Source of the DNA: a virus
Taxonomy: Duplodnaviria > Heunggongvirae > Uroviricota > Caudoviricetes
DNA length: 64,000 nucleotides
Virus record (IMG/VR): IMGVR_UViG_3300035034_002381
Location: 1 to 64,000 of that record
Strand: one strand, 5' to 3'
In this document: positions 26,974 to 43,983 of the stretch, piece after piece
Layout: each line of letters starts with the position of its first letter
How positions within the stretch are numbered: position 1 is the stretch's first letter
The notes under the pieces: generated by a model
The model's input: only the letters and a program-made list of their open reading frames with translations
Databases searched by the model: none
Told to the model about the DNA's origin: nothing
Position numbers and translations under genes: made by a program

Positions 26974-28660
26974 AGTAATTATTCCCGCGGCAGGGAAGGC
27001 ATCAAGACTCAAGCCTTTATCTTCTTCAATGTCAAAATCAATGGTGCCAGTAAATGGTAAACCAATAATTTCATATATTCTTGATCAACTGTTTGAACTA
27101 GGAAATCCATTTCAAATAGTTATTGTTGAAAATGAGCTCGGTGATATTCAAGATTTTGTTAAAAACGCATATCCAAATTATTATGAAGAATCCCGTATTC
27201 TTTTTGCAACTCAAAAAGAAAGGTTAGGTCCTTTGCATGCTATTGAAATTGGTGCAAATAGGTTTCCGGAAAATGATAACATGCCAATTATGGTTTGGCT
27301 CGGAGATACAATCTGTTTGGAAATGGGTGAGTTGCCAGTTAATGAATCTTTATTAATTACATCGCCTGTCGCCGATTATAAAAGATGGTGTTTAGTAGAT
27401 AACGAGAATGTCTTCTATGATAAACCAGATAACAAACCAAGCACTAACCAAGCTTTAATAGGTATATATTATTTCCATGATTTTAAGGCCTTCTACGAGG
27501 CCCTAGATAAGGGAATGCAAGCTCCTATGATTAAAGATGAACATCAAATATCGGCTTTATTAGAAGCATATAAAAAACAACATATATTCAAAATCAGAAA
27601 AACTGATGAATGGTTTGATTGTGGTGAGTTACATACATTTTATGAATCTAAAGCAAGACTTCTTGGAAGATCTGCCAGGTCATTTAATAGTCTAGAAGTA
27701 AATACATTCCATAACACAATTACTAAATCTTCATTAACATTCGAAGGTAAACTGAAAATTGAGAATGAAAAAAATTGGTATTTAGGTTTACCTGAGAATA
27801 TTCAGATTCTCACACCTAGAGTATTAAAATCAAATTCAGGTACGCTAGTTATGTCGCAAGAACCTGGAACACCTCTTAATGAAATGTGGCTTTATGAGGA
27901 TTTGACTGATGATACATGGAAAAGAATAATTGATAAAACGTTACTTATACACAATAAAATTTTCTATCAATCTAGATATATTCCTAAATCTTCTAAATTA
28001 GATAGATTTGCTGCAAGAAAGGAAATGTATCTGACTAAAAATATTGACAGATTGACAGAAATTTCATTCCTGCCTTTTGCACAGAAAAATATAAAAATGA
28101 TTCGAGATTTTGTGCGGGTTACTGGTGAATTATTAATTGAAGATGAAGGTCGTTGGTCGCCACATTTTCATGGAGATTCTCACATGGGTAATATTTTATT
28201 TGAACCTTTACAGGGAAGTATGAAATTTTTGGATCCACGTGGAAAGTTTGGAAATATCGTAGGCATTGAGGGCGATATGTATTATGATATGGCTAAAATT
28301 GCGCAAGATTTTCTTTTACGCTATCCTGAAATTTTATCTGGTCATTATCATTTTAGTGGAGATAATTTTGACCAGCTTGAATTTTATAGAAATGACGAGA
28401 GATCTAAAACTATGCTAAAACATTTCAGAAAAAGAATTGGTGAATATGGTTATATTCCTAATCTTGTTTTAATGTTAGCAACTGTGCTTATCATAACTTG
28501 TATACCTTTTCATAAAGACGATCCAGAAAGACAAAAAGCATTTTGGTATATGGCAGTAAATGTTATTAAAGAAAGAGGGTGGAATATCCAACTCGAAGAT
28601 CATCTCAAAAAACAAAAATTACAATTATCAGACAAGATACATAATCTATACAACTTATAA
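26960..28660 (+). CDS. bifunctional nucleotidylyltransferase (N-terminal) / APH-fold small-molecule kinase (C-terminal): LicC-LicA-like or MurU-AmgK-like
   Basis: N-terminal IIPAAGKASRLKPLS...KSMVPVNGKPII is an NTP-transferase signature; C-terminal HGDSHMGN (H-x-D-x4-N), FLDPRG and GDMYYDMAKI resemble choline/aminoglycoside kinase motifs. Confidence 0.65.
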   Translation: MMNYKVIIPAAGKASRLKPLSSSMSKSMVPVNGKPIISYILDQLFELGNPFQIVIVENELGDIQDFVKNAYPNYYEESRILFATQKERLGPLHAIEIGANRFPENDNMPIMVWLGDTICLEMGELPVNESLLITSPVADYKRWCLVDNENVFYDKPDNKPSTNQALIGIYYFHDFKAFYEALDKGMQAPMIKDEHQISALLEAYKKQHIFKIRKTDEWFDCGELHTFYESKARLLGRSARSFNSLEVNTFHNTITKSSLTFEGKLKIENEKNWYLGLPENIQILTPRVLKSNSGTLVMSQEPGTPLNEMWLYEDLTDDTWKRIIDKTLLIHNKIFYQSRYIPKSSKLDRFAARKEMYLTKNIDRLTEISFLPFAQKNIKMIRDFVRVTGELLIEDEGRWSPHFHGDSHMGNILFEPLQGSMKFLDPRGKFGNIVGIEGDMYYDMAKIAQDFLLRYPEILSGHYHFSGDNFDQLEFYRNDERSKTMLKHFRKRIGEYGYIPNLVLMLATVLIITCIPFHKDDPERQKAFWYMAVNVIKERGWNIQLEDHLKKQKLQLSDKIHNLYNL

Positions 28661-28670
28661 AAAACATACT

Positions 28671-28949
28671 ATGAGCAAAGATTTAGAAAAAGCTAGTGAG
28701 ACACTAGAAGAAACATTGACAGATATCCAAAAGGTGGCAGCTGCTAATTTTTATGATATTGTACAAATTAGTTTAGCCGATAAAGAAGGTAAAGTAGTTG
28801 GTAAAGCTTCTATGAAATATGAAGATATTTTAGCAATGACTAAGATGCATACACAAGATTCTTCACACGTTGTAGGAATGTTATTTCATGCAGTCGAATC
28901 AGAAACTCGTAACAAATTACGAGAAGAAAAAGAAAATGAAGCCAAATGA
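28671..28949 (+). CDS. hypothetical protein
   Basis: start trimmed to MSKDLEK to avoid a 100-nt overlap with the previous gene. Confidence 0.55.
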   Translation: MSKDLEKASETLEETLTDIQKVAAANFYDIVQISLADKEGKVVGKASMKYEDILAMTKMHTQDSSHVVGMLFHAVESETRNKLREEKENEAK

Positions 28950-29134
28950 TTTTTAAAGTAAGAGTAGAAGAAAAGAGCATAGAAGATGTTATAGAACTTA
29001 TTGAAACAGGAGAAGGGAAAAAAGGTCTCCAATTTGATCTATATAATGAAAAACCATATTTTTCACATGTAGAAATTTTCGTTAATACTGATGATTTCTA
29101 CACATTAAAGGATTATTTAAATGAACAAACCTAA
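28946..29134 (+). CDS. small hypothetical protein
   Basis: 62-aa ORF, ATGA overlap. Confidence 0.5.
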   Translation: MIFKVRVEEKSIEDVIELIETGEGKKGLQFDLYNEKPYFSHVEIFVNTDDFYTLKDYLNEQT

Positions 29135-31064
29135 GACTATATGTCTTGTTATGATTGTAAAAAATGAGGCAAAAAATTTACCTCGTTGTTTTTCTACGAT
29201 CAAACATATTATTGATTATTGGGTAATTGTTGATACTGGTTCAACTGATAACACACAGGAAGTTATACAGAAAGAGTTAGCCGATATTCCTGGTGTATTA
29301 ATGGAAAGACCGTGGGTCAATTTTGGTCATAATAGATCCGAATCTTTGGCTTTTGCTAAAAACAGAGCAGATTATCTTTTGCTTTGTGATGCTGATGAAC
29401 AAATTATACCTACACACAATTTTGACAAATCTGAGTTGACTCTTGATCAATATCATTTAAGATATAATGGGAGCTTAGATTATATGGTTCCTTATCTTAT
29501 TAAGTCTAATTTGGCTTGGAGATTTGTAGGAGTTACCCATGAATTTTTGACAGCAAGTGACACAAAATCTTCAGGTGAGATTAAAAGCCTTTCAATTAAA
29601 GATTGGGGAGATGGTGGAGCAAAATCTGATAAATTTGAAAGAGACATTAAATTGCTCGAACAAGGTTTGATTGATGAACCGAAGAATGTTAGGTATATGT
29701 TTTATCTAGCAAATTCTTATAAGAATACTAAGGATTTTGATAACGCAATCAAATGGTATAAAAAACGTATCGATGCAGGGGGTTGGATAGAAGAAGTTAC
29801 ATGTTCATATGAATATATGGGAGGATGTTATCAGCAGAAAAATGACCACGGGAATGCGATTAAAACATGGATAGATGGTTATGAATTTAATCCTTCTCGT
29901 GCTGAGTGTTTATATGAGGCAGGTAAATTACTTCGTGAAGAAAATAAGAATAGAATAGCTTACGAATTTTTACAAAAGGCTAAAGAAATTCCATATCCTA
30001 CTAACGATAGATTATTTATCAAAAGAGATGTTTATGAATATTTGATAGATTATGAACTGACTATTTGTGCATATTATGTTAAACCAGAATATGATATGAC
30101 CGAGACATTTAAAAGGCTAATCTTTTGGCCAAGTCATTTACAACAAAACATTATACAAAATTTTAAGTTTTGGGCTAAAGATTTGAATACACTTATAGGT
30201 CAAGAGGAAAGTATGATCTTGGCTAAAGATTTGATTAGTAATGATTTGGTTGAGGGTTTTACACCTAGTTCCCCATCAATTCTTTTTCATAAAAATCGCA
30301 AGTACATAAATGTGCGCCAAGTATCATATAAAATTGACGAAAATGGTAAGTATTTAGATCGTGCAAGTGGAGGTCATTGTAAACATGTGAATACAATTAA
30401 CACAATGTATTGGACTGATGGACCCTCATATGACACGGAAAATTTTAAACCCAATGATATTTCTACTAAACATGTGAATGGTATTGAAGATCTAAAACTA
30501 TATACACACAATGGAGTAATCAAATACACTGGGACAAAATGGTTGGATTATAACAAAATTTCTATAGTTATTGGTGAGTATACTAAAGAAGGTCTAGATA
30601 ATTATGCTATTCTAGAGTCTCCAGAAGGAAGGAATGTTGAAAAAAATTGGGTACCGTTTGGATTAGATAATGAAGAACTTTTTGTATATGATTGGAATCC
30701 AATAAAAATTGGAAGAATCAAAAATAATAAACTAGTAATCAAAAATTTAAAAACTAGTTTTCCTAACTTGCGTGGATCAGCTCCTGGTAAACTTATTGGA
30801 GATCATATCTATTTTTTATGTCATTTTGTAGAATATTCTACACCAAGAATTTACTATCATATCTTCATTAAAATGCATAAAGATAATTGGGAAAAAATCG
30901 AGATTTCTAAACCGTTTGTTTTTGAAAAACCACAAATAGAATATTCAGTAGGATTTGATTATAATATTAAGACTGATGATATACATATTGCATATAGTGT
31001 AAATGATTCGAATGCAAGAATCAAATCTTATTCACAAACACAATTTCAAAAACTTTTTACTTAA
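29121..31064 (+). CDS. GT2-family glycosyltransferase with TPR region and large C-terminal domain
   Basis: ICLVMIVKNEAKNLPRC...VIVDTGSTDNT...LLLCDADE is the GT2 (SpsA-like) pattern; TPR-like YMFYLANSYKNTKDFDNAIKWYKKRI. Confidence 0.65.
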   Translation: MNKPKTICLVMIVKNEAKNLPRCFSTIKHIIDYWVIVDTGSTDNTQEVIQKELADIPGVLMERPWVNFGHNRSESLAFAKNRADYLLLCDADEQIIPTHNFDKSELTLDQYHLRYNGSLDYMVPYLIKSNLAWRFVGVTHEFLTASDTKSSGEIKSLSIKDWGDGGAKSDKFERDIKLLEQGLIDEPKNVRYMFYLANSYKNTKDFDNAIKWYKKRIDAGGWIEEVTCSYEYMGGCYQQKNDHGNAIKTWIDGYEFNPSRAECLYEAGKLLREENKNRIAYEFLQKAKEIPYPTNDRLFIKRDVYEYLIDYELTICAYYVKPEYDMTETFKRLIFWPSHLQQNIIQNFKFWAKDLNTLIGQEESMILAKDLISNDLVEGFTPSSPSILFHKNRKYINVRQVSYKIDENGKYLDRASGGHCKHVNTINTMYWTDGPSYDTENFKPNDISTKHVNGIEDLKLYTHNGVIKYTGTKWLDYNKISIVIGEYTKEGLDNYAILESPEGRNVEKNWVPFGLDNEELFVYDWNPIKIGRIKNNKLVIKNLKTSFPNLRGSAPGKLIGDHIYFLCHFVEYSTPRIYYHIFIKMHKDNWEKIEISKPFVFEKPQIEYSVGFDYNIKTDDIHIAYSVNDSNARIKSYSQTQFQKLFT

Positions 31065-32362
31065 TGTACATTATAAAAAACAATAAACTTGAATCTACTG
31101 ATAATATCGATTTATTTTTTAATGAGATAAATGTTGGACAACATATTGCTAAATATGGATATTTCGAAAGTGACCTTATTAATTGGTTAAAGCTTACATA
31201 TAAAAATAATGATAAAATCTTTTTAGATTTAGGAGCGCACATAGGTTCATATTCAATAGAATTAGCAGAAAATTTTCATTCAGTTCATTCATTTGAACCT
31301 AATCCAACAGTCTATAATCATTTATGTGCTAATGTTGCATTAAAGAGATTATCAAATAGGGTATTTCCACACAGAGTTGCATTATCGGATAATAAATCTA
31401 AACAGCCATATTATGAGAGATCCAAAGATGGTGGAGGTAATGGAATTGAAGTTGTAAGAGAGAACGATAAGCACTCATTCTTTGTAGAATCTAAATGTTT
31501 AGATGATTATTCTTTCGATAAAGAAATCGGTTTGATTAAAATTGATATCGAAGGTCATGAGTATAAAGCTATTTTGGGTGCATATGAAACTTTGAAAAAC
31601 TCATATTTCCCACCTATAATTTTCGAATCTTGGGCGCAAAATACACACCCAGAATATTCACAAGAAATACTTTTAGAAATTCGTGATAAAACATTTGATG
31701 TATTAAAGGATTATGGATACACTGTTAAATCCATAAGTGGATATAATGAAATGTTTATTGCTGTTCAAGAGCGTGAAAAATCTCAAGAAGATATTATTGT
31801 TGAAGGTCTTTTGACAGATAAGTTAGACGTATGGCTTAACTCACCTGGAGGGACTCGAAGCAATTATATAGCCGATGTTCTAGAAAAAAGTAATTTAAGA
31901 GTGAGAAACGAATCCTGGTATAAGTATGGTTGTCATTGGACTTCTCCTTTATTTGAAAGGGAATTTAAAACTACAAGATTGTTTTGCTACACTAGCGATA
32001 TCGGACTCGCATTGACAAGTCAGTTAAATGCCAATACTATTGATAAACTGAATTTTGCAGATTTTTATAATGAACCATGGGATTTATATCGATGGATACA
32101 AAATATTAAAAAACAAGTGATTAACTGGTCGGATCCTGGCGTATTCTTTTTAAATACCGACTATTTAAATGATAAAGATATTCAGTCTGAATTTAAAACT
32201 CTTACTGGAGATAGTTTAGACATATCAGATTTCAGACTTGACCGTAAATCTAAAAAATTACATCCTGCATTAATACAATACATGGATGAGATTAATGAGA
32301 TTAATGAGTTATTAGCAAAATTACCTAATGCCGGTTTTGGCGGAGAAGTTGATGAAGGTTAA
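31064..32362 (+). CDS. FkbM-family methyltransferase with extra C-terminal domain
   Basis: DLGAHIGSYSIELAE...VHSFEPNPTVYNHLCANV...KIDIEGHE. Confidence 0.6.
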   Translation: MYIIKNNKLESTDNIDLFFNEINVGQHIAKYGYFESDLINWLKLTYKNNDKIFLDLGAHIGSYSIELAENFHSVHSFEPNPTVYNHLCANVALKRLSNRVFPHRVALSDNKSKQPYYERSKDGGGNGIEVVRENDKHSFFVESKCLDDYSFDKEIGLIKIDIEGHEYKAILGAYETLKNSYFPPIIFESWAQNTHPEYSQEILLEIRDKTFDVLKDYGYTVKSISGYNEMFIAVQEREKSQEDIIVEGLLTDKLDVWLNSPGGTRSNYIADVLEKSNLRVRNESWYKYGCHWTSPLFEREFKTTRLFCYTSDIGLALTSQLNANTIDKLNFADFYNEPWDLYRWIQNIKKQVINWSDPGVFFLNTDYLNDKDIQSEFKTLTGDSLDISDFRLDRKSKKLHPALIQYMDEINEINELLAKLPNAGFGGEVDEG

Positions 32363-32366
32363 AAAT

Positions 32367-32580
32367 ATGAAATTAGAAATTGATTTTAGTTTGAGCGATT
32401 TAAAAAATAATTGGAAACCAAAAATTAAGATTTGGTTATCATGGGAGTACTAAAGGTGATAAGATAGAATTTGAAATGTATTTTGATGAATATCACAGTG
32501 AATGGACTTCTTTTAAAGATAAAGCGTTTAAAGGATTTGTTCTTAAAAAAATAGATAGAATATTAGACGAAAATTGTTAA
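32367..32580 (+). pseudogene. frame-split small gene
   Basis: MKLEIDFSLSDLKNNWKPKIKI... stops at 32451-32453 while another frame continues GYHGSTKGDKIEFEMYFDEYHSEW... to 32580; the junction lies in an A-rich run. Confidence 0.3.
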
Positions 32581-32621
32581 AAGTCAAATATTTTGATTAT
32601 ATTTATCCTAAATTAATAACA

Positions 32622-32741
32622 ATGGAATATAAATATAATGAGCTGGAAAAACTTCTTATTCTTATGGGTAAAAAATATCCAAATGACCATGATCTTGGCA
32701 ATCAAGCGCGTAAACTTATTCAAAAGATCAAAGAAAAATAA
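32622..32741 (+). CDS. small hypothetical protein (possibly frame-split, continuing to 32817)
   Basis: 39-aa ORF after ttttgattatattta; another frame continues KFNPIADWRPLTEEELKSNLFKPPF and ends in a TAATG junction with 32817. Confidence 0.35.
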   Translation: MEYKYNELEKLLILMGKKYPNDHDLGNQARKLIQKIKEK

Positions 32742-32816
32742 ATTCAATCCAATAGCTGATTGGAGGCCGTTAACTGAGGAAGAATTAAAGTCAAATCTTT
32801 TTAAACCACCCTTTTA

Positions 32817-33455
32817 ATGAACATATTTGTTCTTGACGAAAATGTCAAAAAATGTGCCGAATATCATTGTGATAAACATGTTGTCAAAATGATTACTGAG
32901 CATAATCAAATTTTGGGTTCGATTTCTTATTTACGTAGAGGTATTTCTAAAAAATCGGAAATAACTGATGAATTTATTCAACAACATTTCCAAAATTTTC
33001 CTAGAAAAAAATTAGCAATTGATATGGATTCATTACCCATTGCTGATCATTCGCCACTTATCAAAAAATTATGGAATTTTGTAAAACCCGCAGAATTGTC
33101 TTGGCCGTACGGTATTGGTTATAAAAATCATCCATGTACACAATGGGCTAATGCGTCTAAAGAAAATTATGATTGGCTATGCTCACTCAATCTTGAATTG
33201 TGTAAAGAATATACTAAACGATATAATCGTCGACATGCTGGTGAGGATATTACTCAATGGTATATTGAAAACGCACCATATCTACCGAATTCTGGCATGA
33301 CTCCATTTGTTTTAGCTATGCCTGATGATTGTAAATCTGATGATCCAGTTGAATCTTATCGAATTTACTACATTTATCATAAATATAAATTTGCCAAATG
33401 GAAAACAAAAGTTCCAAATTGGTATATAAACGTTATAAAACATCAAGAAATATGA
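32817..33455 (+). CDS. conserved hypothetical protein (N-terminus MNIFVLDENVKKCAEYHCDKHVVKM)
   Basis: 212-aa ORF; the N-terminal block looks like a widespread phage and giant-virus family whose function I cannot name. Confidence 0.7.
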   Translation: MNIFVLDENVKKCAEYHCDKHVVKMITEHNQILGSISYLRRGISKKSEITDEFIQQHFQNFPRKKLAIDMDSLPIADHSPLIKKLWNFVKPAELSWPYGIGYKNHPCTQWANASKENYDWLCSLNLELCKEYTKRYNRRHAGEDITQWYIENAPYLPNSGMTPFVLAMPDDCKSDDPVESYRIYYIYHKYKFAKWKTKVPNWYINVIKHQEI

Positions 33456-34009
33456 CAATCAAACACAGAATAACTGATTCTGAAAATACCCATGTTATGC
33501 TCGACATAGAAACTTTGGGTACTGGTGCTAATGCAATCATTTTACAGATTGCAATGGTCAAATTTGGTCTTAACGATCAAAATGGTGAAACAATGAAAAC
33601 TATAGTTAATGTTTTTCCTTGTATCAAAGAACAACATGATGAAGGTAGAACAATGACTTTCGATACAGTTAACTGGTGGCTTGGTCCAGATCATGTGAGC
33701 ATATTAGCAAATCTGCGGAAACAGGAAACATCCAATTTGGTAGATGTTAGATCTCAAATAGCTAAGCACATGGAAGAATTTAGGAAATCGGGAGTTCATC
33801 TGTGGGCAAGGTCACCCAAATTTGACATCAAGATTTTAGAAGATTTTTTAGGAACAGATGTGCCAGAACATTCCCGAAGGCACCAAAGAGATGTTAGAGA
33901 ATATGAATTTATTTCGGGCGATCGCCCAGGTGCATCCCATGATGCAGAAGATGATTGTATTCAACAAATTATATTAGTCACTAATGTTATTCAAAGACTT
34001 TTTATATGA
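33452..34009 (+). CDS. DEDDh 3'-5' exonuclease (DnaQ-like)
   Basis: VMLDIETLG (Exo I) and ASHDAEDDC (H-x4-D Exo III); start set at the ATGA overlap with the previous stop. Confidence 0.65.
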   Translation: MTIKHRITDSENTHVMLDIETLGTGANAIILQIAMVKFGLNDQNGETMKTIVNVFPCIKEQHDEGRTMTFDTVNWWLGPDHVSILANLRKQETSNLVDVRSQIAKHMEEFRKSGVHLWARSPKFDIKILEDFLGTDVPEHSRRHQRDVREYEFISGDRPGASHDAEDDCIQQIILVTNVIQRLFI

Positions 34010-34122
34010 TAACCTCGATAGTAGAAATTATTAAAGAATCTCTAATTGGTAAATCAGTTATAGTTGCCGAGTATTACCCGGATAACAATGAGGGAAATTA
34101 CAAATTCTAAAATAAAGTTAAC

Positions 34123-35022
34123 ATGATATCAGAAGAAAAATTTCCCGATGGACAAATTAATTTTAAAGCAAATACAGAGGACATCAAAAGTCTTTTAACA
34201 CCACCATACATTTTATCAAATGATAATGCGATAAATTTTACAATTGATCTAAGTAACTGGGATAAATTTCAAACTTTGTTGGCAGCCAATGCAAAATTTA
34301 GACAAACGCACAAACAAATTAATTTACATATAGGTTATCTTTTTGGTTCAAGAAGTGACCGTAAATTTGAACATGACGGAATTAACTATTTTCGTGATGT
34401 AATTGCTAAAACAATCAATGATCAAAATTTCAACAAAGTTACTGTATTTGATCCACACTCACTTGCAGTAGAAAATGCAATTAATAATTGTGAGAGTATT
34501 CATCCGTTCCCACAAATCAATCACCATTTTTTAAATATGGTTGGAAATTTAGATTTATCTGAATATGAAATTGTTATAGCGTCTCCAGACCTTGGGGCAT
34601 ACAAAAAAGTCTTTGGAATTTTTGCTAAATTTTCCGAAAAATATCCAAACATACATTTTAATTTTATTTCCGCAAATAAAATTCGTAGTCTGTCTGGTGA
34701 TATTTCTATGGTTTTAAATCCACCATATAAAGAATTTGACAAATCAAAAAAACGAATTCTATATTTAATTGATGATATTTGTGATGGCGGGAGGACCTTT
34801 ATAGAATTTGCTAAACTTCTTAACGAAGATTTTGAGAAAAAGTATCTATATGTATCACATGGAATATTTTCTAAAGGTCTTGATCCATTATTAGAACATT
34901 TCGATAAAATTTTTACTACAAACAGTATTTCGAATACTTATATCAAATATCTAACAAACGATAATACCATTCTAAATTCTAACATTCTTTTTACCACATT
35001 TATTTCGCAACGCAATGAATAA
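34123..35022 (+). CDS. ribose-phosphate pyrophosphokinase (Prs)-like enzyme; candidate ADPR-pyrophosphate synthetase (Adps) of NARP1
   Basis: 299 aa; VFDPHSLAVENAI resembles the Prs DLHA loop, and YLIDDICDGGRTF is a type I PRPP-binding loop. Confidence 0.6.
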   Translation: MISEEKFPDGQINFKANTEDIKSLLTPPYILSNDNAINFTIDLSNWDKFQTLLAANAKFRQTHKQINLHIGYLFGSRSDRKFEHDGINYFRDVIAKTINDQNFNKVTVFDPHSLAVENAINNCESIHPFPQINHHFLNMVGNLDLSEYEIVIASPDLGAYKKVFGIFAKFSEKYPNIHFNFISANKIRSLSGDISMVLNPPYKEFDKSKKRILYLIDDICDGGRTFIEFAKLLNEDFEKKYLYVSHGIFSKGLDPLLEHFDKIFTTNSISNTYIKYLTNDNTILNSNILFTTFISQRNE

Positions 35023-35989
35023 AAAAGCAACAATTCTTCTTGGACTGCCATTAGCAGGCAAGTCGACTTATATAGGAAACAGAATAGAATATGGTGATTG
35101 GTCAGACACAGGATTAGTTTTAGTATCTGCAGATGATCTTAAAGAAAATCATGAAGATTATGATCCCGACCATGCGTATAAAATTCATGAGTGGTCAGTT
35201 AAAGAGGCCGAAAGGCAAATGAAAGAATACTCAGAATTTGGATCAAAACACATTATCATGGACGGTGGTGGCATTAACAATTCATATACTCGTAGAATTA
35301 TGTCTGATCTACGTTTAAAAGGTTATGAAATTGAACTTATACATATTAAAACGCCGCTCCAAGTTTGTCTTCTTAGAAATGAGAAGCGGGTCCGCAAAGT
35401 TCCAGTGCATGATATTGTAACAAAGGCAGCTCGAGAACGTAAACAATATGAGATACTTAAAGATGTTGTAGATAGTGTTACTATAGTTCCATATTTCACA
35501 AACAAACATATTTTTATAGATATGGATGGAGTTATTGCGGGACAGTCTGTCTTGCCAGAATTTGAAGGAAAAATAGATTTTGTTAATAGCGAAATTTTTA
35601 CTATTTTACCACCTGTTCATCAAGTTATTGATAAACTTAATAGTCTTGATTCTGAAAAACATACACTTTATATTTTATCAGCAACACCGAATTCATATTC
35701 GTATACTGAAAAACATGATTGGTTAGATAAACATTTTAACATACCAAGAGAACGCAGATTTTTTGTAAATGCTGGAAAGCATAAAGCAGAAATGTTAGAA
35801 AATCTAAGAATAAAACTCAAAACTGATAAACGTGATGTCACTCTGATTGAAGATACGCACTCGACACTTAAAGATGTTAGAGACCTTAGAATGAATCCAA
35901 TACATGTATCTGAATTTTTATCAAATGATTTTTTGCGAGATGAAGAATTATATGACTATAAATATTACGAAAACCCAAATAATAAATAA
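35015..35989 (+). CDS. P-loop kinase fused to HAD phosphatase (T4 polynucleotide kinase/phosphatase-like architecture)
   Basis: GLPLAGKST Walker A; IMDGGGINNSYTRR and RNEKRVRKVPVHDI parallel T4 Pnk ISDTNLNPERR and RNSKRGTKAVPIDV; C-terminal FIDMDGVIA is a DxDG HAD motif. Confidence 0.5.
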   Translation: MNKKATILLGLPLAGKSTYIGNRIEYGDWSDTGLVLVSADDLKENHEDYDPDHAYKIHEWSVKEAERQMKEYSEFGSKHIIMDGGGINNSYTRRIMSDLRLKGYEIELIHIKTPLQVCLLRNEKRVRKVPVHDIVTKAARERKQYEILKDVVDSVTIVPYFTNKHIFIDMDGVIAGQSVLPEFEGKIDFVNSEIFTILPPVHQVIDKLNSLDSEKHTLYILSATPNSYSYTEKHDWLDKHFNIPRERRFFVNAGKHKAEMLENLRIKLKTDKRDVTLIEDTHSTLKDVRDLRMNPIHVSEFLSNDFLRDEELYDYKYYENPNNK

Positions 35990-35995
35990 AAAGAT

Positions 35996-37714
35996 ATGAG
36001 AAAAATGAACGCTTTCTTAGCAACCGATGGTTATAAAACAGGCCATCACATAATGTATCCTGAAGGAACTATTGAGGTATATGATAATTTAACACCCCGC
36101 AGTTTTAAATACGCAATCAACAATGTCGAGTATGTTATTGCTGTGGGTCAAAAAATGGCAGTCACAGAAATCAACGATATGTTTAACGAAACATTTTTTA
36201 GACATGAAGATGTTGAAAGACTTGCCTTTCATTTATTTAGACAAGGATTACCTGAACAAAAAGCTAAAGAAACCGCAAGAAATAAAATTAAAGCCGAAGT
36301 ATGTAGTGAAATCAAAAAGGAGTTTTCGTTATATCTAGATATGAAATATGATGTTTCGCATATTGAAAGACTTTGGGATTTAGGATATCTTCCTGTAAAA
36401 ATAAAAGCTTTACCAGAAGGTGTAAAGGTCCCAATAAAGGTTCCTGTACTTACAATTGTAAATACTTTGCCAGATTTTTTCTGGTTACCTAATTTCTTGG
36501 AGACTATTATTTCTAATTTGTTATGGAAACCTATGACATCTGCAACTATTGCGTACGAGTTCAAGAAAACTTTGACTAAATGGGCAATGAAAACTGATAG
36601 CAAAAATGTTTCTATTGTAGAATTTCAGGCACATGATTTTTCAATGCGAGGAATGGATTCTATTTATGCTGCTGCTTCATCAGGTTTAGGTCATGCATCA
36701 TCATTCCTTGGAAGTGATACAATACCAGTAATTCATGCAGCAAGATATTATTATGGTGATCAAGGTCCTATTATACATTCTGTAAATGCTACAGAACACA
36801 GTGTCATGTGTGCTGGAGAAAAAGATAGTGAAATTGAAACATTCAGACGATTATTGCGTCTTTTCCCGACAGGAATCTTATCAGTAGTTTCTGATACTTG
36901 GGATTTATGGAAAGTGATAGTAAAATATCTTCCTGAATTAAAGGACGAAATTCTAAAAAGAGCAGGAAAACTGGTTATTAGACCTGACTCTGGAAATCCT
37001 GTTGATATTATTTGTGGTTTTGATCATAATAGATTTGATACACACGAAGAAGCAGAAAAATATTATAGAACTTATGGAATAAAAGATCCAAAATACTATG
37101 TAAAAAACGAATTCTTTACTGTAATTTCACATTCAGGCAACAATTTTAAATATGCAGATTTAGAAGAGACTCCTGCTGATAAAGGAGTCGTGCAATTATT
37201 ATGGGAAATCTTTGGAGGGCAAATAAATGAAGATGGATTCAAAGTTTTAAATGAACACATTGGCGCAATTTATGGTGATAGTATTAATTTCGAAAGAGCA
37301 AATCAGATTTGTGAGAGACTAGCCAGCAAAGGATTTGCGACTACAAACGTTGTACTTGGAATAGGATCCTTCACATATCAGTATAACACTCGTGATAACC
37401 ATGGATTTGCCGTTAAAGCTACTCATATAACTATTCAACATCCTGATGGAAAAATGGAAGAAAGAGACATATTCAAAGACCCACTAACATCGGTAGGTAC
37501 AAATAAAACTAGTGCTAAAGGATTTATTCAAGTACTTAAAGAAAATGGAGAGTATATTATGAGAGATCAGGTTAGTAGAGAACAAGAAGAAAATTCTTTA
37601 CTTACAATGATTTATTTAGATGGTAAAGTTCTTTCCGAAGACACACTCAAAAGTATTCGTAGAAATGTGAATAACGAATTGGCTGTTGAATTAGGATTAT
37701 ATGAAGTAGCATAA
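35996..37714 (+). CDS. nicotinamide phosphoribosyltransferase (NAMPT/NadV)-like enzyme; candidate Namat of NARP1
   Basis: N-terminus LATDGYKTGHHIMYPEGT matches the NAMPT TDSYK..H pattern; 572 aa, longer than typical NAMPT. Confidence 0.65.
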   Translation: MRKMNAFLATDGYKTGHHIMYPEGTIEVYDNLTPRSFKYAINNVEYVIAVGQKMAVTEINDMFNETFFRHEDVERLAFHLFRQGLPEQKAKETARNKIKAEVCSEIKKEFSLYLDMKYDVSHIERLWDLGYLPVKIKALPEGVKVPIKVPVLTIVNTLPDFFWLPNFLETIISNLLWKPMTSATIAYEFKKTLTKWAMKTDSKNVSIVEFQAHDFSMRGMDSIYAAASSGLGHASSFLGSDTIPVIHAARYYYGDQGPIIHSVNATEHSVMCAGEKDSEIETFRRLLRLFPTGILSVVSDTWDLWKVIVKYLPELKDEILKRAGKLVIRPDSGNPVDIICGFDHNRFDTHEEAEKYYRTYGIKDPKYYVKNEFFTVISHSGNNFKYADLEETPADKGVVQLLWEIFGGQINEDGFKVLNEHIGAIYGDSINFERANQICERLASKGFATTNVVLGIGSFTYQYNTRDNHGFAVKATHITIQHPDGKMEERDIFKDPLTSVGTNKTSAKGFIQVLKENGEYIMRDQVSREQEENSLLTMIYLDGKVLSEDTLKSIRRNVNNELAVELGLYEVA

Positions 37715-37755
37715 TGGAACAAGTTACATAATTTTCTAAAATAAACTGATTCTAT

Positions 37756-37790
37756 TAAAACTTTTCAAGTCTAGATTAATATAAAATATA
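37756..37790 (+). promoter_or_regulatory. TAAAACTTT ... TAATATAAAATATAATG promoter-like motif
   Basis: immediately upstream of 37791. Confidence 0.45.
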
Positions 37791-39107
37791 ATGAAAAGAT
37801 CTGGTATTAAAGTAGCGGTATTTCCCATGGGTTCAATTATCCGATTTAGGAAAGATGGAATCAAAAGATCGTTTGGTCGTTTAGAATATTATAATTTGAT
37901 TTGGGCGTTGGCCAGAAATCCAAGTATTTCGGAAATTTGGCTTTTACAAGTTTCTGATTGGGAACAATTGACTGATGATGAAAAAATTGATTTTGATCCT
38001 AGAAAAGTTATTCGTAACATTTATGCGGAATTTAAAGTAGACAAACCTAATAGTAAAAAACAAGAATCTTACGCTGATCTTTGGAACAAAATTTCTCATC
38101 TTAAGCAACCTGATTTTGCAATTGTATTTTCTACACAAGGTCTTACTAGAATTTCTATACCAAATATTATACCTAAAGTAAAAAATCCTGAAGAAAAAGC
38201 TAAATGTTTAGAAATGACAATACGCTATTGTTCTTCACAAATGTATTATCTAAACAATTCAGAAATTCCATATTTTTTGGTAGTTAATGATGGCAGATTT
38301 TTGTATACTAATACACATACAAAATATCTGGATATGTTTAATTTACCCAAAGAAATCATGGGATTTTACAAAAATGATGATTATATACTTCATCATTATG
38401 ATAAAATGCCGGATGATGGTGGCAAAATGACTACTGATGTTGTTAAGTTATCATACAGTAAAATGATTTGGCTTAATAATATCAGTGAAAAAATCATAGA
38501 CCCTGCCAACATAGAGAAAACTGAAAAGTTTTCTATTGTAGCTATGCAGGCAGCTTATGGTAAAGATAAACATGATCCTAGATATTCTATTCTAAAGGAG
38601 TGGTTTTTAGACGTAGATGGAAATGAAGATGTTTCGATTTATGGTAAATGGGGAGAATCTTATGTTAAAGATTATCAACATTTTAAAGGCTTAAAGCCAC
38701 ATACTGAAATTGATGAAATTTTCAAGAAAACTAGGTACACATTATTGATTCCAACAGAACCTTTATGGGTAACTACGAAAATATGTGAGATGTTGAAATT
38801 GGGTGTTGTCCCGTTTTTGCATCCTAGTTATGATGAAAAAAATCTATCATTTGGAGAGGATTCATTTTTTAGAGTAAAAAATCCGGAAGATTTAAAAAAG
38901 AAGATTTCATTTTTAGAAAAAAATCCAGATAAAAGAATCAAGCTCATACAAAAGGCTCAAGAAAAATATATGGAAGGTGTCACAAACGGAACTTGTGTCG
39001 TCGACGCAATTAATCCATATCTTCAACGGGCTAATATTGATGTAGAATTGCAACATGGATTTAGTGATGAACTAATTCGTAAGCGCAAAGTTAAAAAATT
39101 ATTTTAA
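37791..39107 (+). CDS. GT-B-like glycosyltransferase, possibly T4 beta-glucosyltransferase-like (tentative)
   Basis: 438 aa; C-terminal layout FSIVAMQAAYGKDKHDPRY...YTLLIPTEPLWVTTKICEMLKLGVVPFL...FFRVKNPEDLKKKISFLEKNP resembles the T4 BGT C-terminal half from memory. Confidence 0.4.
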   Translation: MKRSGIKVAVFPMGSIIRFRKDGIKRSFGRLEYYNLIWALARNPSISEIWLLQVSDWEQLTDDEKIDFDPRKVIRNIYAEFKVDKPNSKKQESYADLWNKISHLKQPDFAIVFSTQGLTRISIPNIIPKVKNPEEKAKCLEMTIRYCSSQMYYLNNSEIPYFLVVNDGRFLYTNTHTKYLDMFNLPKEIMGFYKNDDYILHHYDKMPDDGGKMTTDVVKLSYSKMIWLNNISEKIIDPANIEKTEKFSIVAMQAAYGKDKHDPRYSILKEWFLDVDGNEDVSIYGKWGESYVKDYQHFKGLKPHTEIDEIFKKTRYTLLIPTEPLWVTTKICEMLKLGVVPFLHPSYDEKNLSFGEDSFFRVKNPEDLKKKISFLEKNPDKRIKLIQKAQEKYMEGVTNGTCVVDAINPYLQRANIDVELQHGFSDELIRKRKVKKLF

Positions 39108-39110
39108 ATT

Positions 39111-40319
39111 ATGAAGAATAAATTTTCTAAGGATGGACATTGGAGATTCGGTACTATAGTTCCATTAATCGGGGGAATGACCATATCCAACCAACAAGCA
39201 ACCGGAGATAATCCGGACTTTTTAATATCTTATCCAGCGTTTGCAGGCAATGATTCTCATTGTGTTAATCATTTTAAAGATACCCCATATTATGTAGTCG
39301 ACCCAGAAACTAATGAATTACCTGAAGACGATACTTTTCAAAATGTAGATTTTGTGTCTGCAGTGTGCCCATGTGCAGGACTTTCTATGTTAAATACTTC
39401 TAAGAAAAGAGGATCTGATGCAGAAATGAATAATTGGATGTATAAATCTGCAGAATTAGTTTTAGAACAAATTAAACCCAAAGTTTTTTGGGGGGAGAAT
39501 GCACCAGGTCTATATACAAAATCTGGTGAAGGTGTAGTCAAAAAATTGAGAGAAATTGCTGAAAAGAATGGTTATGTACTTTCATTAGTCAAAACTAATA
39601 CCTTTTTACATGGTATACCACAACATAGAACTAGAACTTTTTACTTTTTTTGGCAAGGTAAACATGCGCCAATACTGAATTATACCGAGCGGGATGCACC
39701 AACTCTTAAAGAATATCTAGATCAAATTCCTGAAAATGCTTCTATGCAAGATGAAAAATTCGGCTTAGAAAGTATGAATAGTCTTTGGTTTAAATTCTTA
39801 AAAGATCAAAACATAAAAATTTCAGATGTACAAAAAAGTACGTGTAAATCAATTATGGATTATTGTGTAGCCGAAAAATTGATGCCGAAAATGGTTGATT
39901 GGGGTGAAGAAAATGGATATGATAAAATGGTCAGGACTGCTAAGCATATTCTACATAAACAATCTATGGGTAAAGGTTGGTGGGACGCTACACCATTAGT
40001 ACCAACAGATACTATTAATGCGCTGATTAGTAAGAATGCTGGAATTGTCCACCCGAACGGAGAAAGACCAATTAATACCCGAGAAGCTTTATGGTTAATG
40101 GGATTACCACATGATTTTACTATGGTCGATTATGACAATAGAAAAAATAGCAATCACATTTGCCAAAACGTACCGGTAACCACTGCAAAAGACTGGACAT
40201 TCGAAGTGATGAAATTTATCAATAAAGATATTGAAAAAATTGCAACGCCGTTTCTAAAACAAAACAATATCAAACAAAGAATAGATTTACAAGAAAATAA
40301 ATCCAAAGCACTTTTTTAA
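39111..40319 (+). CDS. DNA (cytosine-5) methyltransferase-family enzyme
   Basis: motif IV AVCPCAGLS, motif VI FWGENAPGL, motif VIII GIPQHRTRTFYF. Confidence 0.75.
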   Translation: MKNKFSKDGHWRFGTIVPLIGGMTISNQQATGDNPDFLISYPAFAGNDSHCVNHFKDTPYYVVDPETNELPEDDTFQNVDFVSAVCPCAGLSMLNTSKKRGSDAEMNNWMYKSAELVLEQIKPKVFWGENAPGLYTKSGEGVVKKLREIAEKNGYVLSLVKTNTFLHGIPQHRTRTFYFFWQGKHAPILNYTERDAPTLKEYLDQIPENASMQDEKFGLESMNSLWFKFLKDQNIKISDVQKSTCKSIMDYCVAEKLMPKMVDWGEENGYDKMVRTAKHILHKQSMGKGWWDATPLVPTDTINALISKNAGIVHPNGERPINTREALWLMGLPHDFTMVDYDNRKNSNHICQNVPVTTAKDWTFEVMKFINKDIEKIATPFLKQNNIKQRIDLQENKSKALF

Positions 40320-40321
40320 AT

Positions 40322-41761
40322 ATGAAACCTTTATTTGTAATAGAAGACGAAATACAAAATAAGTCTAATATATTCGAACTAATTAATCCACAAAAATTAG
40401 ATCCGAATAAAAAGACTATATTAATAATCACATACAAAAATTTTGCTGGTGATTTTGACTATATTTATGGATTTAATCACAAGATTATTGAATTATTAAA
40501 AGATCAATATAATATTGTATTTGCTGGAAAGGAAATTAAAAAGAATGTCATCGATATAGATAATTTCTATTTAATTGATATGAAAGGTTATACGAGTTTA
40601 AATCAGAATAGATTTAAGCGCAAAAAAGAAGATCCTAACAGTAACCAAATTAACAGAAATATTTTATGGGAAGAATTTGAATCTGCGTTCGGTGATTTAG
40701 AAATTGATTTAATTTTTTATGCGACACCAGAGTATGCGATTTTACCTCATGGTAAATCTTATCATAAAGATTTCAAAGAAATACAAAACGAAATTCATGA
40801 TTATGTAGGCGCAGATACTAAAAAGATTCAGCGTATTAACGAAATTATGTACGATATCTATGAAAATTATGATACCCATGCATCTATTTTAATGTTTTCT
40901 GCCTGGCATAAAAATGTCATGATGAACTTGCCGGTTTTTCTAAAAGAAAGAAATTCGTTTAAAGTCATTGCATTTTCTATTGATCCTGCAAATACTTATC
41001 GATATTTGGAACACCATGGAATAGAATGTACCAATTTTTATTTTGAAGAAGATAAACGTGGTACTCGCAATTTCGAAAAATTTCCAATAGCACATCTTCA
41101 ACATTTAATTTTTGAAAACAACGAAAATCCTACAGAAAAATATAGTTTAGAAAAAACTACAGATTTTTTCTTTATGGGAACGATTATTCAAGAAAAGGGA
41201 AGTAGAATGCAGATGTGGTATGAATTTTTATCAGATTTAAAATTAGACGATAAATCTAATTTTTGGATCCCAATTAAACATAATGGAATTTACCGAACTA
41301 AAAAACAAGAAACTAGTGGTCATACCAAAAAGGGTTTACAGATTATTGATGAAAAATTCACAGACATTAAAAATGCTATCATAAATCATCCCAATTTTTC
41401 TGGACATTTATTACCATCAGAAGTCAAAAAACATATTGTAGCTTATAAATATTCATTAGTATTGCGATGTGTTTCTATTTATGATAGTCTAAATTTTAGA
41501 CCTATTTATTATGTTTATTTAAACATTCTTCCATTTTTAGATCATATGTATGATCCAGATTATTTACAGATTCCTAAGAAATTTCAAGACAAATTAGCAG
41601 TATCTAATTCACGAGATATCGAGGATAGAATCAAATATTATAATCAAAATCCAAAAGAAAGAATTCAGTTATTAAAAGAAATGAGAGAGTTTTTTGAAAT
41701 AGACGAGTTTTTAGAAGATTGGAAAAACATAACACTAAAACATATAGATCATGCTAAATAA
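40322..41761 (+). CDS. paralogous GT-B-like glycosyltransferase (tentative)
   Basis: 479 aa; FFFMGTIIQEKGSR...KYSLVLRCVSIYDSLNFRPIYYVYLNILPFL...AVSNSRDIEDRIKYYNQNP has the same layout as 37791. Confidence 0.35.
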   Translation: MKPLFVIEDEIQNKSNIFELINPQKLDPNKKTILIITYKNFAGDFDYIYGFNHKIIELLKDQYNIVFAGKEIKKNVIDIDNFYLIDMKGYTSLNQNRFKRKKEDPNSNQINRNILWEEFESAFGDLEIDLIFYATPEYAILPHGKSYHKDFKEIQNEIHDYVGADTKKIQRINEIMYDIYENYDTHASILMFSAWHKNVMMNLPVFLKERNSFKVIAFSIDPANTYRYLEHHGIECTNFYFEEDKRGTRNFEKFPIAHLQHLIFENNENPTEKYSLEKTTDFFFMGTIIQEKGSRMQMWYEFLSDLKLDDKSNFWIPIKHNGIYRTKKQETSGHTKKGLQIIDEKFTDIKNAIINHPNFSGHLLPSEVKKHIVAYKYSLVLRCVSIYDSLNFRPIYYVYLNILPFLDHMYDPDYLQIPKKFQDKLAVSNSRDIEDRIKYYNQNPKERIQLLKEMREFFEIDEFLEDWKNITLKHIDHAK

Positions 41762-42398
41762 GATATTTAAAAGTTTGAGTAATTCTGAAAATGAAGCATT
41801 ATGTGTACAAAGAACTAATCTTTTATTCGAAGCATTAGATATTATAGAAAAACATAATGGGAAAGCTTGGTTAGATTGTGGTACTTTGTTAGGTGCGTAT
41901 AGAGATGGTGAATATATTCCATGGGACGTCGATGTAGATTTAGGAATTAATATCGAGGATGTTACTGAGGAAATGCTAAATGATTTCAGAGATAAATATA
42001 ATATACGACACGATAATGGAAACTTAGATCAATACAAATTTTGCTCATTTTATAAGAGAGATGAAAATGGTGATAATTACAAATTTAGAAGATGTAATTT
42101 ATGGATTGATTTACATATGTACTATCCAAATTATGATGGTACAAGAACTATGACAATTACTACAGGAAAAATTAGAGCACCTAAAAAAATCTTTCCAGCA
42201 CCTGCTGAATGTATCGAGAATTTAGAACAAATTGAATGGCAAGGTAGAAAAGTAAATATTCCTAGTAAAACTGTAAAATATTTAGAACAATGGTATGGAT
42301 ATGATTGGGACGTACCTAACGATAAATGGAAAATGTCTCCGAGTTGGTACGATAATCCAACAAATGACAAAATTATTCAAGGTAAAACCCTCTTTTAA
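41751..42398 (+). CDS. LicD-family phosphotransferase (phosphocholine/phospho-alditol transferase family)
   Basis: KAWLDCGTLLGAYRDGEYIPWDVDVDLGI matches the LicD signature W.d.GTLLGa.R...IPWDdD.D. Confidence 0.75.
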   Translation: MLNKIFKSLSNSENEALCVQRTNLLFEALDIIEKHNGKAWLDCGTLLGAYRDGEYIPWDVDVDLGINIEDVTEEMLNDFRDKYNIRHDNGNLDQYKFCSFYKRDENGDNYKFRRCNLWIDLHMYYPNYDGTRTMTITTGKIRAPKKIFPAPAECIENLEQIEWQGRKVNIPSKTVKYLEQWYGYDWDVPNDKWKMSPSWYDNPTNDKIIQGKTLF

Positions 42399-42416
42399 AC
42401 AAAATAAACAAAACAA

Positions 42417-43178
42417 ATGCATATATTAAATGAATATTTTGACAAGATTTATATTACCAACCTCGACTCGGCCAAAGATAGATATGAAAGATTATCTAAA
42501 GAACTGGATTCATTTGGCGTTGTTTATGAAAGATTCAAAGCATTGACTCCAGATGATGCAAGAAAGGTATTTGCTGAAAAAGGCCTAAAGATTCCTAAAA
42601 GTAATAGTGGAGCTCTTGGTTGCGCAACTTCACATTATATATGCTGTCAACAGGCTGCGAAAAATGGACTTAAAAGAATTTTGATTCTTGAAGATGATGC
42701 AAGAATAACCGATATAGATTTTAATCAAGAGACTCAAAATTTAGTTGAACAAATAAGAAAAACCGACTGGTTTTATCTAAAGCTTGGTTATAATATCACT
42801 AACCAGATGTTAGACGAAAATTTTGAGTTTCATAGAGTTTCAGAAAATTTGTTTAATCTTTCAAAAAGTTCTATGACCACCGCTATAGCTTTCAATATCG
42901 AAAAAATCGTAGAGGATGAGAATGCTTCCACAGTTTTTATTTCTGATCACGCATTAGAAAATAGTAAATTGAATATTCATATTGACCATAGATTGTTTAT
43001 GATGTGTAACGAATTCGGAATTCTACAATGCCATTATTATCCAGCAATATTTACTCAGACTGATGGGTATTCATACATAGGAAAAGAAGAAAGGAAATTC
43101 TCTAATATTGATAAAAGAACAAACAGAATATTCAAAGAGCATATACAATCTTCTAGCTCAACAAAAAAATTATTTTAA
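42417..43178 (+). CDS. glycosyltransferase family 25 (LgtB/Lic2B-like)
   Basis: FDKIYITNLDSAKDRYERL..., GALGCATSHY and ILILEDDARI. Confidence 0.65.
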   Translation: MHILNEYFDKIYITNLDSAKDRYERLSKELDSFGVVYERFKALTPDDARKVFAEKGLKIPKSNSGALGCATSHYICCQQAAKNGLKRILILEDDARITDIDFNQETQNLVEQIRKTDWFYLKLGYNITNQMLDENFEFHRVSENLFNLSKSSMTTAIAFNIEKIVEDENASTVFISDHALENSKLNIHIDHRLFMMCNEFGILQCHYYPAIFTQTDGYSYIGKEERKFSNIDKRTNRIFKEHIQSSSSTKKLF

Positions 43179-43196
43179 ACAAAGAAAATAGAAAAT

Positions 43197-43976
43197 ATGG
43201 AATTTTTAAATATACTACAATCGGAATTACAATCGGGATTTATTTACATACCTAATAGAGGCAATGCTGGGGATGTTGTCATTCAACAATCTACTATTAA
43301 ATTTTTTGAAAAAAATAATCTAAACTTCGAATTAGGAAAAAACACTACAACTTATGTTGGGGAAAATCTAGTTTATGGTGGGGGTGGAAATTTGATTGGA
43401 AAATACCAACCGGCTAAAAAATTCATAAAATTAAATGCGGAAAAAAATCATATAATGATATTACCGCATACAATTAAGAACAGCGAAAAGTCTTTAAATA
43501 TGCTGAATAAGGATTCTATTGTTTTTTGCAGAGAAAGAATATCTCATGAATATGTTAGTAAATTTATTGAAAAATGTTATTTACATAAAGATATGGCTTT
43601 TCATCTAGATTTAGAATCTTATAAAAAGGAATCTAAATATGAAGTAGGAAATATATTTAGAATGGATGTCGAATCTTCTAATAACGTTAAAAAAATTCCA
43701 TCTAATAATGTGGATATATCCAGTGTTTTTAATCGTAGAAATCAGCATACAAATTTAGAAGTAGCTCAAGCTGTATTTGATGATTTTGTTAATTATATAG
43801 CAGATTTCGAAATTGTAAACACAGATAGATTACATATTGCAATTATTGCTGCAATATTGGGAAAAAATGTTAATCTTTATCCTAACTCATATTATAAAAA
43901 TAAAGCCGTATATGACTATACATTATCGTTAGAATATCCCAACGTCAATTTTATCGATGAAGTAAAATATAGATGA
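43197..43976 (+). CDS. polysaccharide pyruvyl transferase family protein
   Basis: PNRGNAGDVVIQ, VYGGGGNL and NTDRLHIAIIAAILGKNV. Confidence 0.6.
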   Translation: MEFLNILQSELQSGFIYIPNRGNAGDVVIQQSTIKFFEKNNLNFELGKNTTTYVGENLVYGGGGNLIGKYQPAKKFIKLNAEKNHIMILPHTIKNSEKSLNMLNKDSIVFCRERISHEYVSKFIEKCYLHKDMAFHLDLESYKKESKYEVGNIFRMDVESSNNVKKIPSNNVDISSVFNRRNQHTNLEVAQAVFDDFVNYIADFEIVNTDRLHIAIIAAILGKNVNLYPNSYYKNKAVYDYTLSLEYPNVNFIDEVKYR

Positions 43977-43983
43977 TGCATTT

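Follow-up and report, generated by a model that had tools for sequence, protein, structure and literature searches.

A T4-Pnkp-like kinase-phosphatase gene between Adps and Namat genes suggests an accessory of the phage NARP1 pathway

Positions 34123-37714 of a 64,000-nucleotide stretch of viral DNA (positions 1 to 64,000 of IMG/VR record IMGVR_UViG_3300035034_002381; hereafter, the window) carry three tightly packed open reading frames (ORFs) on the + strand, as seen in the ORF list and its translations. The first (34123-35022, 299 amino acids; phrog_619) is Prs-like and is predicted to encode the ADP-ribose pyrophosphokinase Adps. The last (35996-37714, 572 amino acids) is NAMPT-like and is predicted to encode the nicotinamide ADP-ribose transferase Namat. 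Between them lies a gene (35015-35989, 975 nucleotides, 324 amino acids) that fuses a kinase to a phosphatase in the manner of the T4 polynucleotide kinase-phosphatase, Pnkp. The first two genes overlap by 8 nucleotides and the second and third are separated by 6; in public gene calls of an identical locus the third gene starts at Met4 (36005), which gives a protein of 569 amino acids. The window derives from a T4-like myovirus that encodes a Gp23-type capsid protein and a prohead protease, and contigs in ENA, JGI and Logan samples show the identical gene order. Searched at near-identity against 50,697 phage records, the locus had neither a match nor a close DNA-level relative, and a scan for promoters and terminators gave nothing above the shuffled background. 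The original prediction, made from the sequence, had proposed that the outer genes form a module of the NAD+ reconstitution pathway NARP1 and had singled out the inserted fusion gene as unusual. Its three ORFs are present where it placed them, its NARP1 reading is supported by the evidence below, and the fusion was rightly called unusual; it belongs, moreover, to a family that is conserved in association with NARP1 and shares homology with T4 Pnkp.

By its sequence, the first gene is an Adps and not a true Prs. It matches phrog_619 with an E value of 9e-49 and shares 32% identity with the structurally characterised Adps of phage ICP1; against all curated Prs models of NCBIfam it scores at most 54 bits, with cut-offs of 113-518, and canonical Prs structures match it at E 5e-5 only. 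The hallmarks of ICP1 Adps are a remodelled pyrophosphate-donor (PP) loop, a catalytic β-hairpin lysine and aromatic contacts to the adenine of ADP-ribose (ADPR), as described in a 2026 structural study (PMC13586617). The PP loop of gene 1, DDICDGGRTF (34771-34800), satisfies the pattern DD-I/L-C-D-G-x-x-S/T-F, whereas the corresponding segments are DDICDGAASF in ICP1 Adps and DDMIDTGGTL in Escherichia coli Prs. The form DD[ILV]CDGG..TF is shared by the Adps homologs that adjoin homologs of the fusion in other loci, where the scan located the loop; locus L017 has DDIGDGFGTF. Both of the gene 1 motifs quoted in the original prediction were located, the second being FDPHS (34447-34461), whose His112 corresponds to His121 of ICP1 Adps in a column that is invariant when gene 1, ICP1 Adps and E. 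coli Prs are aligned. Residues F7, R77, F82, H112, D156, K186, D217 and D218 align to F18, R87, F92, H121, D161, K185, D212 and D213 of the ICP1 enzyme; the position of F92, which stacks on adenine, is Phe in gene 1 and Val in E. coli Prs. The C-terminal segment of E. coli Prs is missing from the gene 1 alignment, and gene 1 ends in a tail of its own of ~30 amino acids (the α11-α12 regulatory/filament module was compared by sequence).

The third gene is likewise a predicted Namat rather than a Nampt. It matches phrog_448 at E 8e-172, and its best matches in the Protein Data Bank (PDB) are 9W5X/9W5W (E 2e-127), the crystal structures of SpβL1 Namat (PMC12774641). Xanthomonas (Xcc) Nampt follows at 1.5e-60 and human Nampt at ~1e-52 (HMMER), which puts the Namat and Nampt scores ~65 orders of magnitude apart. 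In the published account of the Namat selectivity clamp, the aromatics of a helix with the signature GS-X-Φ-X-Φ-X-Φ-TRD stack on the adenine of ADPR pyrophosphate (ADPR-PP), and a loop whose third residue is R, K or Y contributes a further stacking residue (PMC12774641). The selectivity-clamp helix of gene 3, GIGSFTYQYNTRD (37358-37396), fits this signature, and its GSFTYQYNTRD (residues 457-467) is exactly the motif of SpβL1 Namat; the negative control, Xcc Nampt, has GMGGALLQKVDRD / GGALLQKVDRD at this position. A candidate for the selectivity-clamp loop, TPRSFKY (36092-36112), rests on an ambiguous sequence alignment and has a Lys followed by an aromatic residue, as in the Bas63-type rule of PMC12774641. 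The catalytic core is kept, with equivalents of D13, Y15, F189, S190, R192, D215, the catalytic His, R306, D308 and G360-D361 in the HMMER alignment to 9W5X; the N-terminal TDGYKTGHH pattern, also quoted in the original prediction, lies at ~36023-36049. When phage databases are ranked against gene 3, verified NARP1 phages form a block at 34-46% identity (ICP1 at 1e-102, Felix-O1 type at ~1e-88), below which the scores fall to 1e-60 or weaker.

Gene 3 had also been described as unusually long. The figure of 572 amino acids is right, but the length is not anomalous, because related Namats span 449-599 amino acids. The extra length is due to insertions at two variable loops. The first, of 27 amino acids (residues ~72-98; 36209-36289), is missing from most Namats and is partly present in L017 and in Leptolyngbya phage Lbo-JY46. 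The second, of ~48 amino acids (residues ~343-390; 37022-37165), falls in a hypervariable loop, a site at which insertions of variable length also occur in L018, L032, L065, L073 and Vibrio phage Chester.

The tetrapeptide HxGH is the signature of the nucleotidyltransferases NadD, NadR and nicotinamide mononucleotide (NMN) adenylyltransferase (NMNAT). Neither HxGH nor the longer GxFxPxHxGH occurs in any of the six frames of the 64,000-base window, in agreement with the earlier statement that no NMNAT motif is present. The Adps loop of gene 1, the Namat clamp of gene 3 and the absence of HxGH from the 64 kb thus speak for NARP1, and neither NARP2 nor NARP3 is supported. Set beside verified Adps/Namat and Prs/Nampt proteins, as had been proposed, both end genes side with Adps and Namat; by the published sequence and structure criteria they qualify as NARP1 enzymes and not as enzymes of the route through phosphoribosyl pyrophosphate (PRPP) and NMN. 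They also lie next to one another in the sense relevant to NARP1, on a common strand with only the 975-nucleotide fusion gene between them. NARP2 fails on gene 3, with its aromatic clamp and much weaker score against Nampt structures, and the NMNAT of that pathway has no signature in the six frames of the window. For NARP3, which consists of PnuC plus a NadR-like enzyme (PMC13464706), there is no HxGH and no such Pfam match among the scanned ORFs, small ORFs not having been scanned for PnuC. For the variant NARP1-AP, the middle gene has no Macro domain, and tblastn with the Macro protein gp175 of Chester gives nothing in the window. We are highly confident in the assignment of genes 1 and 3 to a predicted NARP1 core. 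Like the NARP1 loci of SpβL1, Bas63, Fado and ICP1, the window has the remodelled PP loop of the Adps clade, the clamp-helix motif, a single operon and no NMNAT; it differs from them in the third gene between the pair and in the two Namat loop insertions, and its proteins share 32% (Adps) and roughly 40% (Namat) identity with those of ICP1.

It is, by the same evidence, highly improbable that the two are an ordinary Prs and Nampt making PRPP and NMN, with an NMNAT elsewhere in the phage or in the host, as in NARP2-like salvage of the KVP40 kind. Such a reading could appeal to the database labels ('ribose-phosphate pyrophosphokinase' and 'nicotinamide phosphoribosyltransferase'), to the PRPP activity that Namat keeps to some extent in vitro, and to the fact that the window covers only part of the genome. 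It is contradicted by a PP loop that is that of Adps and not of Prs, by a Namat aromatic clamp in place of the GGALLQ loop of Nampt, by the gap between PDB scores (1e-127 versus 1e-60) and by the lack of HxGH in 64 kb. Furthermore, Osterman et al. found no phage with both pathways and found Namat adjoining 97% of Adps-clade genes.

Aeromonas phage CC2 was considered as a NARP2 comparator and rejected, because its PP loop is of the Adps type and its clamp helix is an aromatic variant; Xcc Nampt from the PDB was used instead. In this T4-like phage (L129), an Adps-type gene (4410-5207; PP loop DDICDGGRSF) lies 1.8 kb from a Namat-like gene (7001-8512) with the variant clamp GSWGFLKNSSRD and 30% identity to the window Namat. 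By these motifs the two look like a divergent NARP1-like pair.

The middle gene joins a P-loop kinase (Zeta_toxin/AAA_33, residues 3-142) to a HAD/NT5C-like domain. Profile alignment (hhalign) to T4 Pnkp gives a probability of 98% and an E value of 2e-13 over 269 columns that span both domains and T4 residues 1-296, and the top Foldseek match to the AlphaFold2 model of the fusion (pLDDT 90.4) is 1ltq, at E 1e-10; the other best structural matches are Pnkp1 and CthPnk, and viral 'polynucleotide kinase' models match as well. The kinase half (residues ~1-150; 35015-35464) has the Walker A motif GLPLAGKS (35042-35065), the general base Asp40 and the lid RNEKRVRKVP. The phosphatase half (residues ~160-303; 35492-35923) has the HAD motif I DMDGV (35519-35533), S222, K257 and E279-D280, and finds its best match among NT5C-type nucleotidases. 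Equivalents of K15, S16, D35, R38, R126, D165, D167, D277 and D278 of T4 Pnkp are all present, at an overall identity of 15-17%. Both active sites are invariant in 39 family members. The invariant motifs DGGGINNSY and IDFVN are specific to the family. In its overall plan, the fusion resembles T4 Pnkp (PseT), a protein of ~300 amino acids with an N-terminal P-loop kinase of the 5'-kinase type and a C-terminal DxDxT phosphatase; it differs from it in its family-specific motifs, in the NT5C-type likeness of its HAD half and in having NARP1 instead of an RNA ligase as its partner.

The fusion family comprises at least 128 clusters at 90% identity; a threshold of 50% leaves ~33 full-length representatives. 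A search of 185,579 bacterial and archaeal species genomes recovered no relatives, and the only GenBank phages with the fusion are the Lak megaphages and Lbo-JY46. We surveyed its genomic context in 115 viral and metagenomic loci (designated L), in which Adps and Namat were located by tblastn and full-length fusions were dereplicated at 70% identity. This left 29 lineages. Adps and/or Namat lies within 5 kb on the same strand in 23 of them and is lacking in 1, whereas the flanks of the remaining 5 are too short, so that 23 of the 24 informative lineages are linked to NARP1 (at 90% identity, 27 are linked, 2 are unlinked and 6 are too short). NARP1 occurs in only about 4% of phages, and the association therefore cannot be due to chance. 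The linked phages include the T4-like myovirus of the window, Lak megaphages and a cyanophage, and the aromatic form of the clamp is present in every linked Namat in which the motif could be located.

The commonest order is Adps-fusion-Namat, with codons that overlap or abut as in the window; the abutting arrangement is also found in L014, L015 and L017. Other orders are Namat-fusion (Lak phages and L024), Namat-fusion-Adps (L085/86) and a looser arrangement (Lbo-JY46). In the Lak phages the fusion is linked more tightly to Namat than to Adps, and an additional fusion-Namat junction is present on the fragment contig L130. Distant HAD-only relatives (27-40% identity) were set aside as a different family because they are never found near NARP1, and two apparently standalone kinase or HAD halves (P0159 and P0161) proved to be fragments on contigs of less than 1 kb and not split genes. 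Kinase-only homologs (~155-159 amino acids, AAA_33) lie exactly between Adps and Namat in L032 (9983-10462) and L114 (708-1151). The occurrence of these forms in the Adps-Namat slot suggests that kinase activity alone is useful to NARP1.

The NARP1 core is already known, but a kinase, HAD or polynucleotide-kinase accessory is not mentioned in the NARP1 literature that we searched. Our results suggest that the fusion is a conserved, virus-restricted and Pnkp-derived accessory of NARP1 that is new to this literature. We consider functional coupling of the fusion to NARP1 to be likely, and the three genes probably constitute one operon, an extended NARP1 anti-defence module.

An orthodox role for the middle gene, as a polynucleotide kinase-phosphatase that heals tRNA or other RNA (or DNA) ends in the way that T4 Pnkp counters anticodon nucleases, seems unlikely to us. 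On that account, its proximity to NARP1 would reflect the clustering of anti-defence genes and nothing in the chemistry of NAD+. The two-domain homology to T4 Pnkp, with equivalents of D35, R38, R126, D165 and D167, speaks for it, as do the structural matches to T4 Pnkp, Pnkp1, CthPnk and viral 'polynucleotide kinase' models, the T4-like nature of the window phage, a Thg1-like tRNA-repair gene in the gene island of L065 (below) and an RNA-ligase-like gene near NARP1 in Chester. Clustering alone fits poorly, however, with an arrangement in which 23 of 24 informative lineages, from unrelated phage types, keep the gene within 5 kb of Adps or Namat on the same strand and often with overlapping codons, or with kinase-only versions placed exactly between the two. 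Nor did any window ORF that was scanned match an RNA ligase family; the protein is no more than 15-17% identical to T4 Pnkp, and its HAD half finds its best matches among NT5C-type nucleotidases.

A second comparison concerns NARP1-AP, in which the Macro phosphatase Adpp, encoded between Adps and Namat, converts ADPR-1''-phosphate, the product of the aRES defence, to ADPR (Osterman et al., 2026 preprint). Vibrio phage Gary has this system, and Chester shows the same layout, with gp175 as the Macro protein. The window resembles the Gary operon in having three genes in the same order with a phosphatase-containing middle gene, but the middle protein is a Macro domain in NARP1-AP and a HAD domain fused to a P-loop kinase here. 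The HAD half could be a non-homologous replacement for Adpp that dephosphorylates aRES-made ADPR-1''-phosphate for Adps, with the kinase secondary. The shared slot in the Adps-Macro-Namat operons of Gary and Chester, and a third, unrelated DxDxT protein that fills it in crAss-like phages, would be consistent with this analogue of NARP1-AP. Macro/Adpp homologs nevertheless occur alongside the fusion in L051, L065 and L073, which refutes mutual exclusion of the two, shows that they are not interchangeable and indicates that the function of the fusion is probably distinct from that of Adpp. The kinase site is, moreover, conserved as strictly as the phosphatase site, and kinase-only forms occupy the slot in L032 and L114. 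We regard replacement of Adpp as quite unlikely.

The small DxDxT protein of the crAss-like phages (~141 amino acids, motif FDFDNT; phrog_1238, labelled 'phosphoheptose isomerase') lies between Namat and Adps. It was found in L002 (crAss cr126_1; 6493-6918), L003 (DAC15; 6496-6924), L072 (2543-2899), L089 (300-668) and L065 (8855-9253), and it abuts the fusion in several metagenomic loci. This protein may be a second undescribed NARP1 accessory. It was rejected as a relative of the HAD half of the fusion (no significant BLASTP match; hhalign probability 0.2). On one strand of L065 (2620-12661), genes for a Thg1-like protein, a Macro protein, a Prs/Adps-like protein, NADAR (E 1.6e-46), the small DxDxT protein, the fusion and Namat form an ADPR/NAD island.

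A 648-amino-acid viral protein in BFVD, A0A8S5VCN3, is labelled as a nicotinamide phosphoribosyltransferase and aligns structurally to the fusion model over 149 columns (E 3e-7). On the basis of these models it is an unconfirmed candidate for a Namat physically joined to a kinase or HAD domain. The Rosetta-stone Namat-kinase fusion that it suggested was not confirmed, as a word-index search gave close relatives only, and the long proteins recovered in an exhaustive scan turned out to be other zeta-toxin-domain architectures.

We propose the following scheme for the module. A host NADase (TIR, SIR2, SEFIR and similar) would cleave NAD+ into ADPR and nicotinamide. Judging by homology and by diagnostic residues confirmed through mutagenesis (PMC13586617 and PMC12774641), Adps would then move the β,γ-pyrophosphate of ATP to the 1'' hydroxyl of ADPR to make ADPR-PP, and Namat would hold the adenine of ADPR-PP in its aromatic clamp and join nicotinamide to it, yielding NAD+ directly and bypassing the NMN intermediate and NMNAT. 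The T4-Pnkp-like enzyme, tied to the pair by its genetic association, would act as a dedicated accessory. Its HAD half would most likely act on an NAD-derived nucleotide that is of no use to Adps and Namat, stripping off a ribose-linked phosphate and so returning the molecule to the pool of ADPR or NAD+. Candidates are 2'-phospho-ADPR (from cleavage of NADP+), ADPR-cyclic-phosphate (from decay of ADPR-PP) and 3'-NADP. ADPR-PP is known to decay in infected cells to ADPR-cyclic-phosphate, which is a dead end, and the HAD domain of T4 Pnkp heals 2',3'-cyclic, 2'- and 3'-phosphates (PMC3592404). The kinase half would most likely phosphorylate a ribose hydroxyl of an NAD-type nucleotide; our preferred guess is the conversion of NAD+ to NADP+, by which the operon would rebuild both pyridine-nucleotide pools.

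Precedents for such chemistry are analogies only. AvrRxo1, a kinase of the zeta/PNK fold clade, phosphorylates NAD to make 3'-NADP, showing that this fold can take NAD as an acceptor, and the archaeal MJ0917 is a fused NAD kinase/NADP phosphatase, showing that a kinase-phosphatase fusion can act on the NAD+/NADP+ pair, with folds unrelated to those of the window fusion. A further parallel is RyDEP of mycobacteriophage DyoEdafos, which, as may be the case for the fusion, is an accessory enzyme in a NARP1 locus that feeds ADPR into the pathway; it is a glycosidase of unrelated fold whose substrates are cyclic ADPR signals. The preferred scheme explains why the general-base Asp is invariant, why the fusion is linked more tightly to Namat in Lak phages, why kinase-only forms exist, why the fusion co-occurs with Adpp and how it survives as a lone gene.

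We put forward only tentatively the idea that the fusion adds a third catalytic arm to NAD+ reconstitution, one that handles a phosphorylated pyridine or ADP-ribose nucleotide beyond the reach of plain NARP1. In one version, it would remove the 2'-phosphate from 2'-phospho-ADPR and re-phosphorylate the rebuilt NAD+, such that NADP+ is restored as well; in another, it would reverse an undescribed host defence that phosphorylates NAD+ or generates ADPR-phosphate species. The specific chemistry of the NADP arm is doubtful. Several observations weigh against our interpretation. Fold and sequence searches of the fusion yield no substrate-level information, and its kinase keeps the catalytic layout of T4 Pnk, with which a polynucleotide 5'-OH substrate would agree equally well. 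The NadK that hosts already possess makes a phage NAD kinase less necessary. In one well-sampled lineage (L005, L007-13 and L046-47), the fusion has no NARP1 gene within 10 kb, and so a neighbouring NARP1 is not needed for it to persist, and perhaps not for it to work. For the core, the window is part of a genome that exceeds 69 kb, from the coordinate offsets of matching contigs, and an NMNAT could thus lie outside it.

The three genes are enclosed by a dense modification cluster (window 26041-45468) whose members include a SET-domain protein, an NTP-transferase, GT2, Methyltransf_21, GT1-like, LicD and GT25 proteins, a pyruvyl transferase, a thymidylate synthase and a C5 cytosine DNA methylase (39111-40319). 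The cluster may serve DNA hypermodification or surface-glycan chemistry. A gene for an Rv2179c-like 3'-5' exoribonuclease lies immediately upstream of Adps in the window (33398-34009) and in L006 (8242-8805), and L078 (1628-2110) also has one; its position beside Adps may reflect inherited synteny or a further associated function. SPFH/Band-7 proteins are encoded in the window (1201-2661) and in L002 (7930-8721), just downstream of the NARP1 genes of crAss cr126_1, a recurrence that is probably coincidental. In the lineage in which the fusion is unlinked (L046/L047, 6796-12678), a lone + strand fusion gene sits between DUF7487/MTES_1575/DUF723 homing-endonuclease-like genes; in the window, a DUF7487/MTES_1575 ORF (21117-22802) directly follows the major capsid gene.

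Over 20% of bacteria are estimated to use NAD+ depletion as antiviral immunity, which phages counter mainly through NARP1. Modules of this kind are overlooked by annotation pipelines because their genes are labelled Prs, 'predicted kinase/Kti12' and NAMPT. Both earlier NARP1 accessories exposed new biology: Adpp led to the aRES defence, and RyDEP to the enzymatic destruction of Thoeris signals. The fusion would be a third conserved accessory, carried by ~30 phage lineages that include the Lak megaphages of the human gut, and it may offer a handle on another non-canonical bacterial attack on the NAD(P)+ pool or on the rebuilding of NADP+ by phages. If it reverses an undescribed host defence, it would indicate a new class of immunity aimed at NAD+, in parallel with Adpp and aRES. 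If its accessory role is true, a T4-Pnkp-type scaffold would be re-assigned from nucleic-acid repair to small-molecule nucleotide metabolism.

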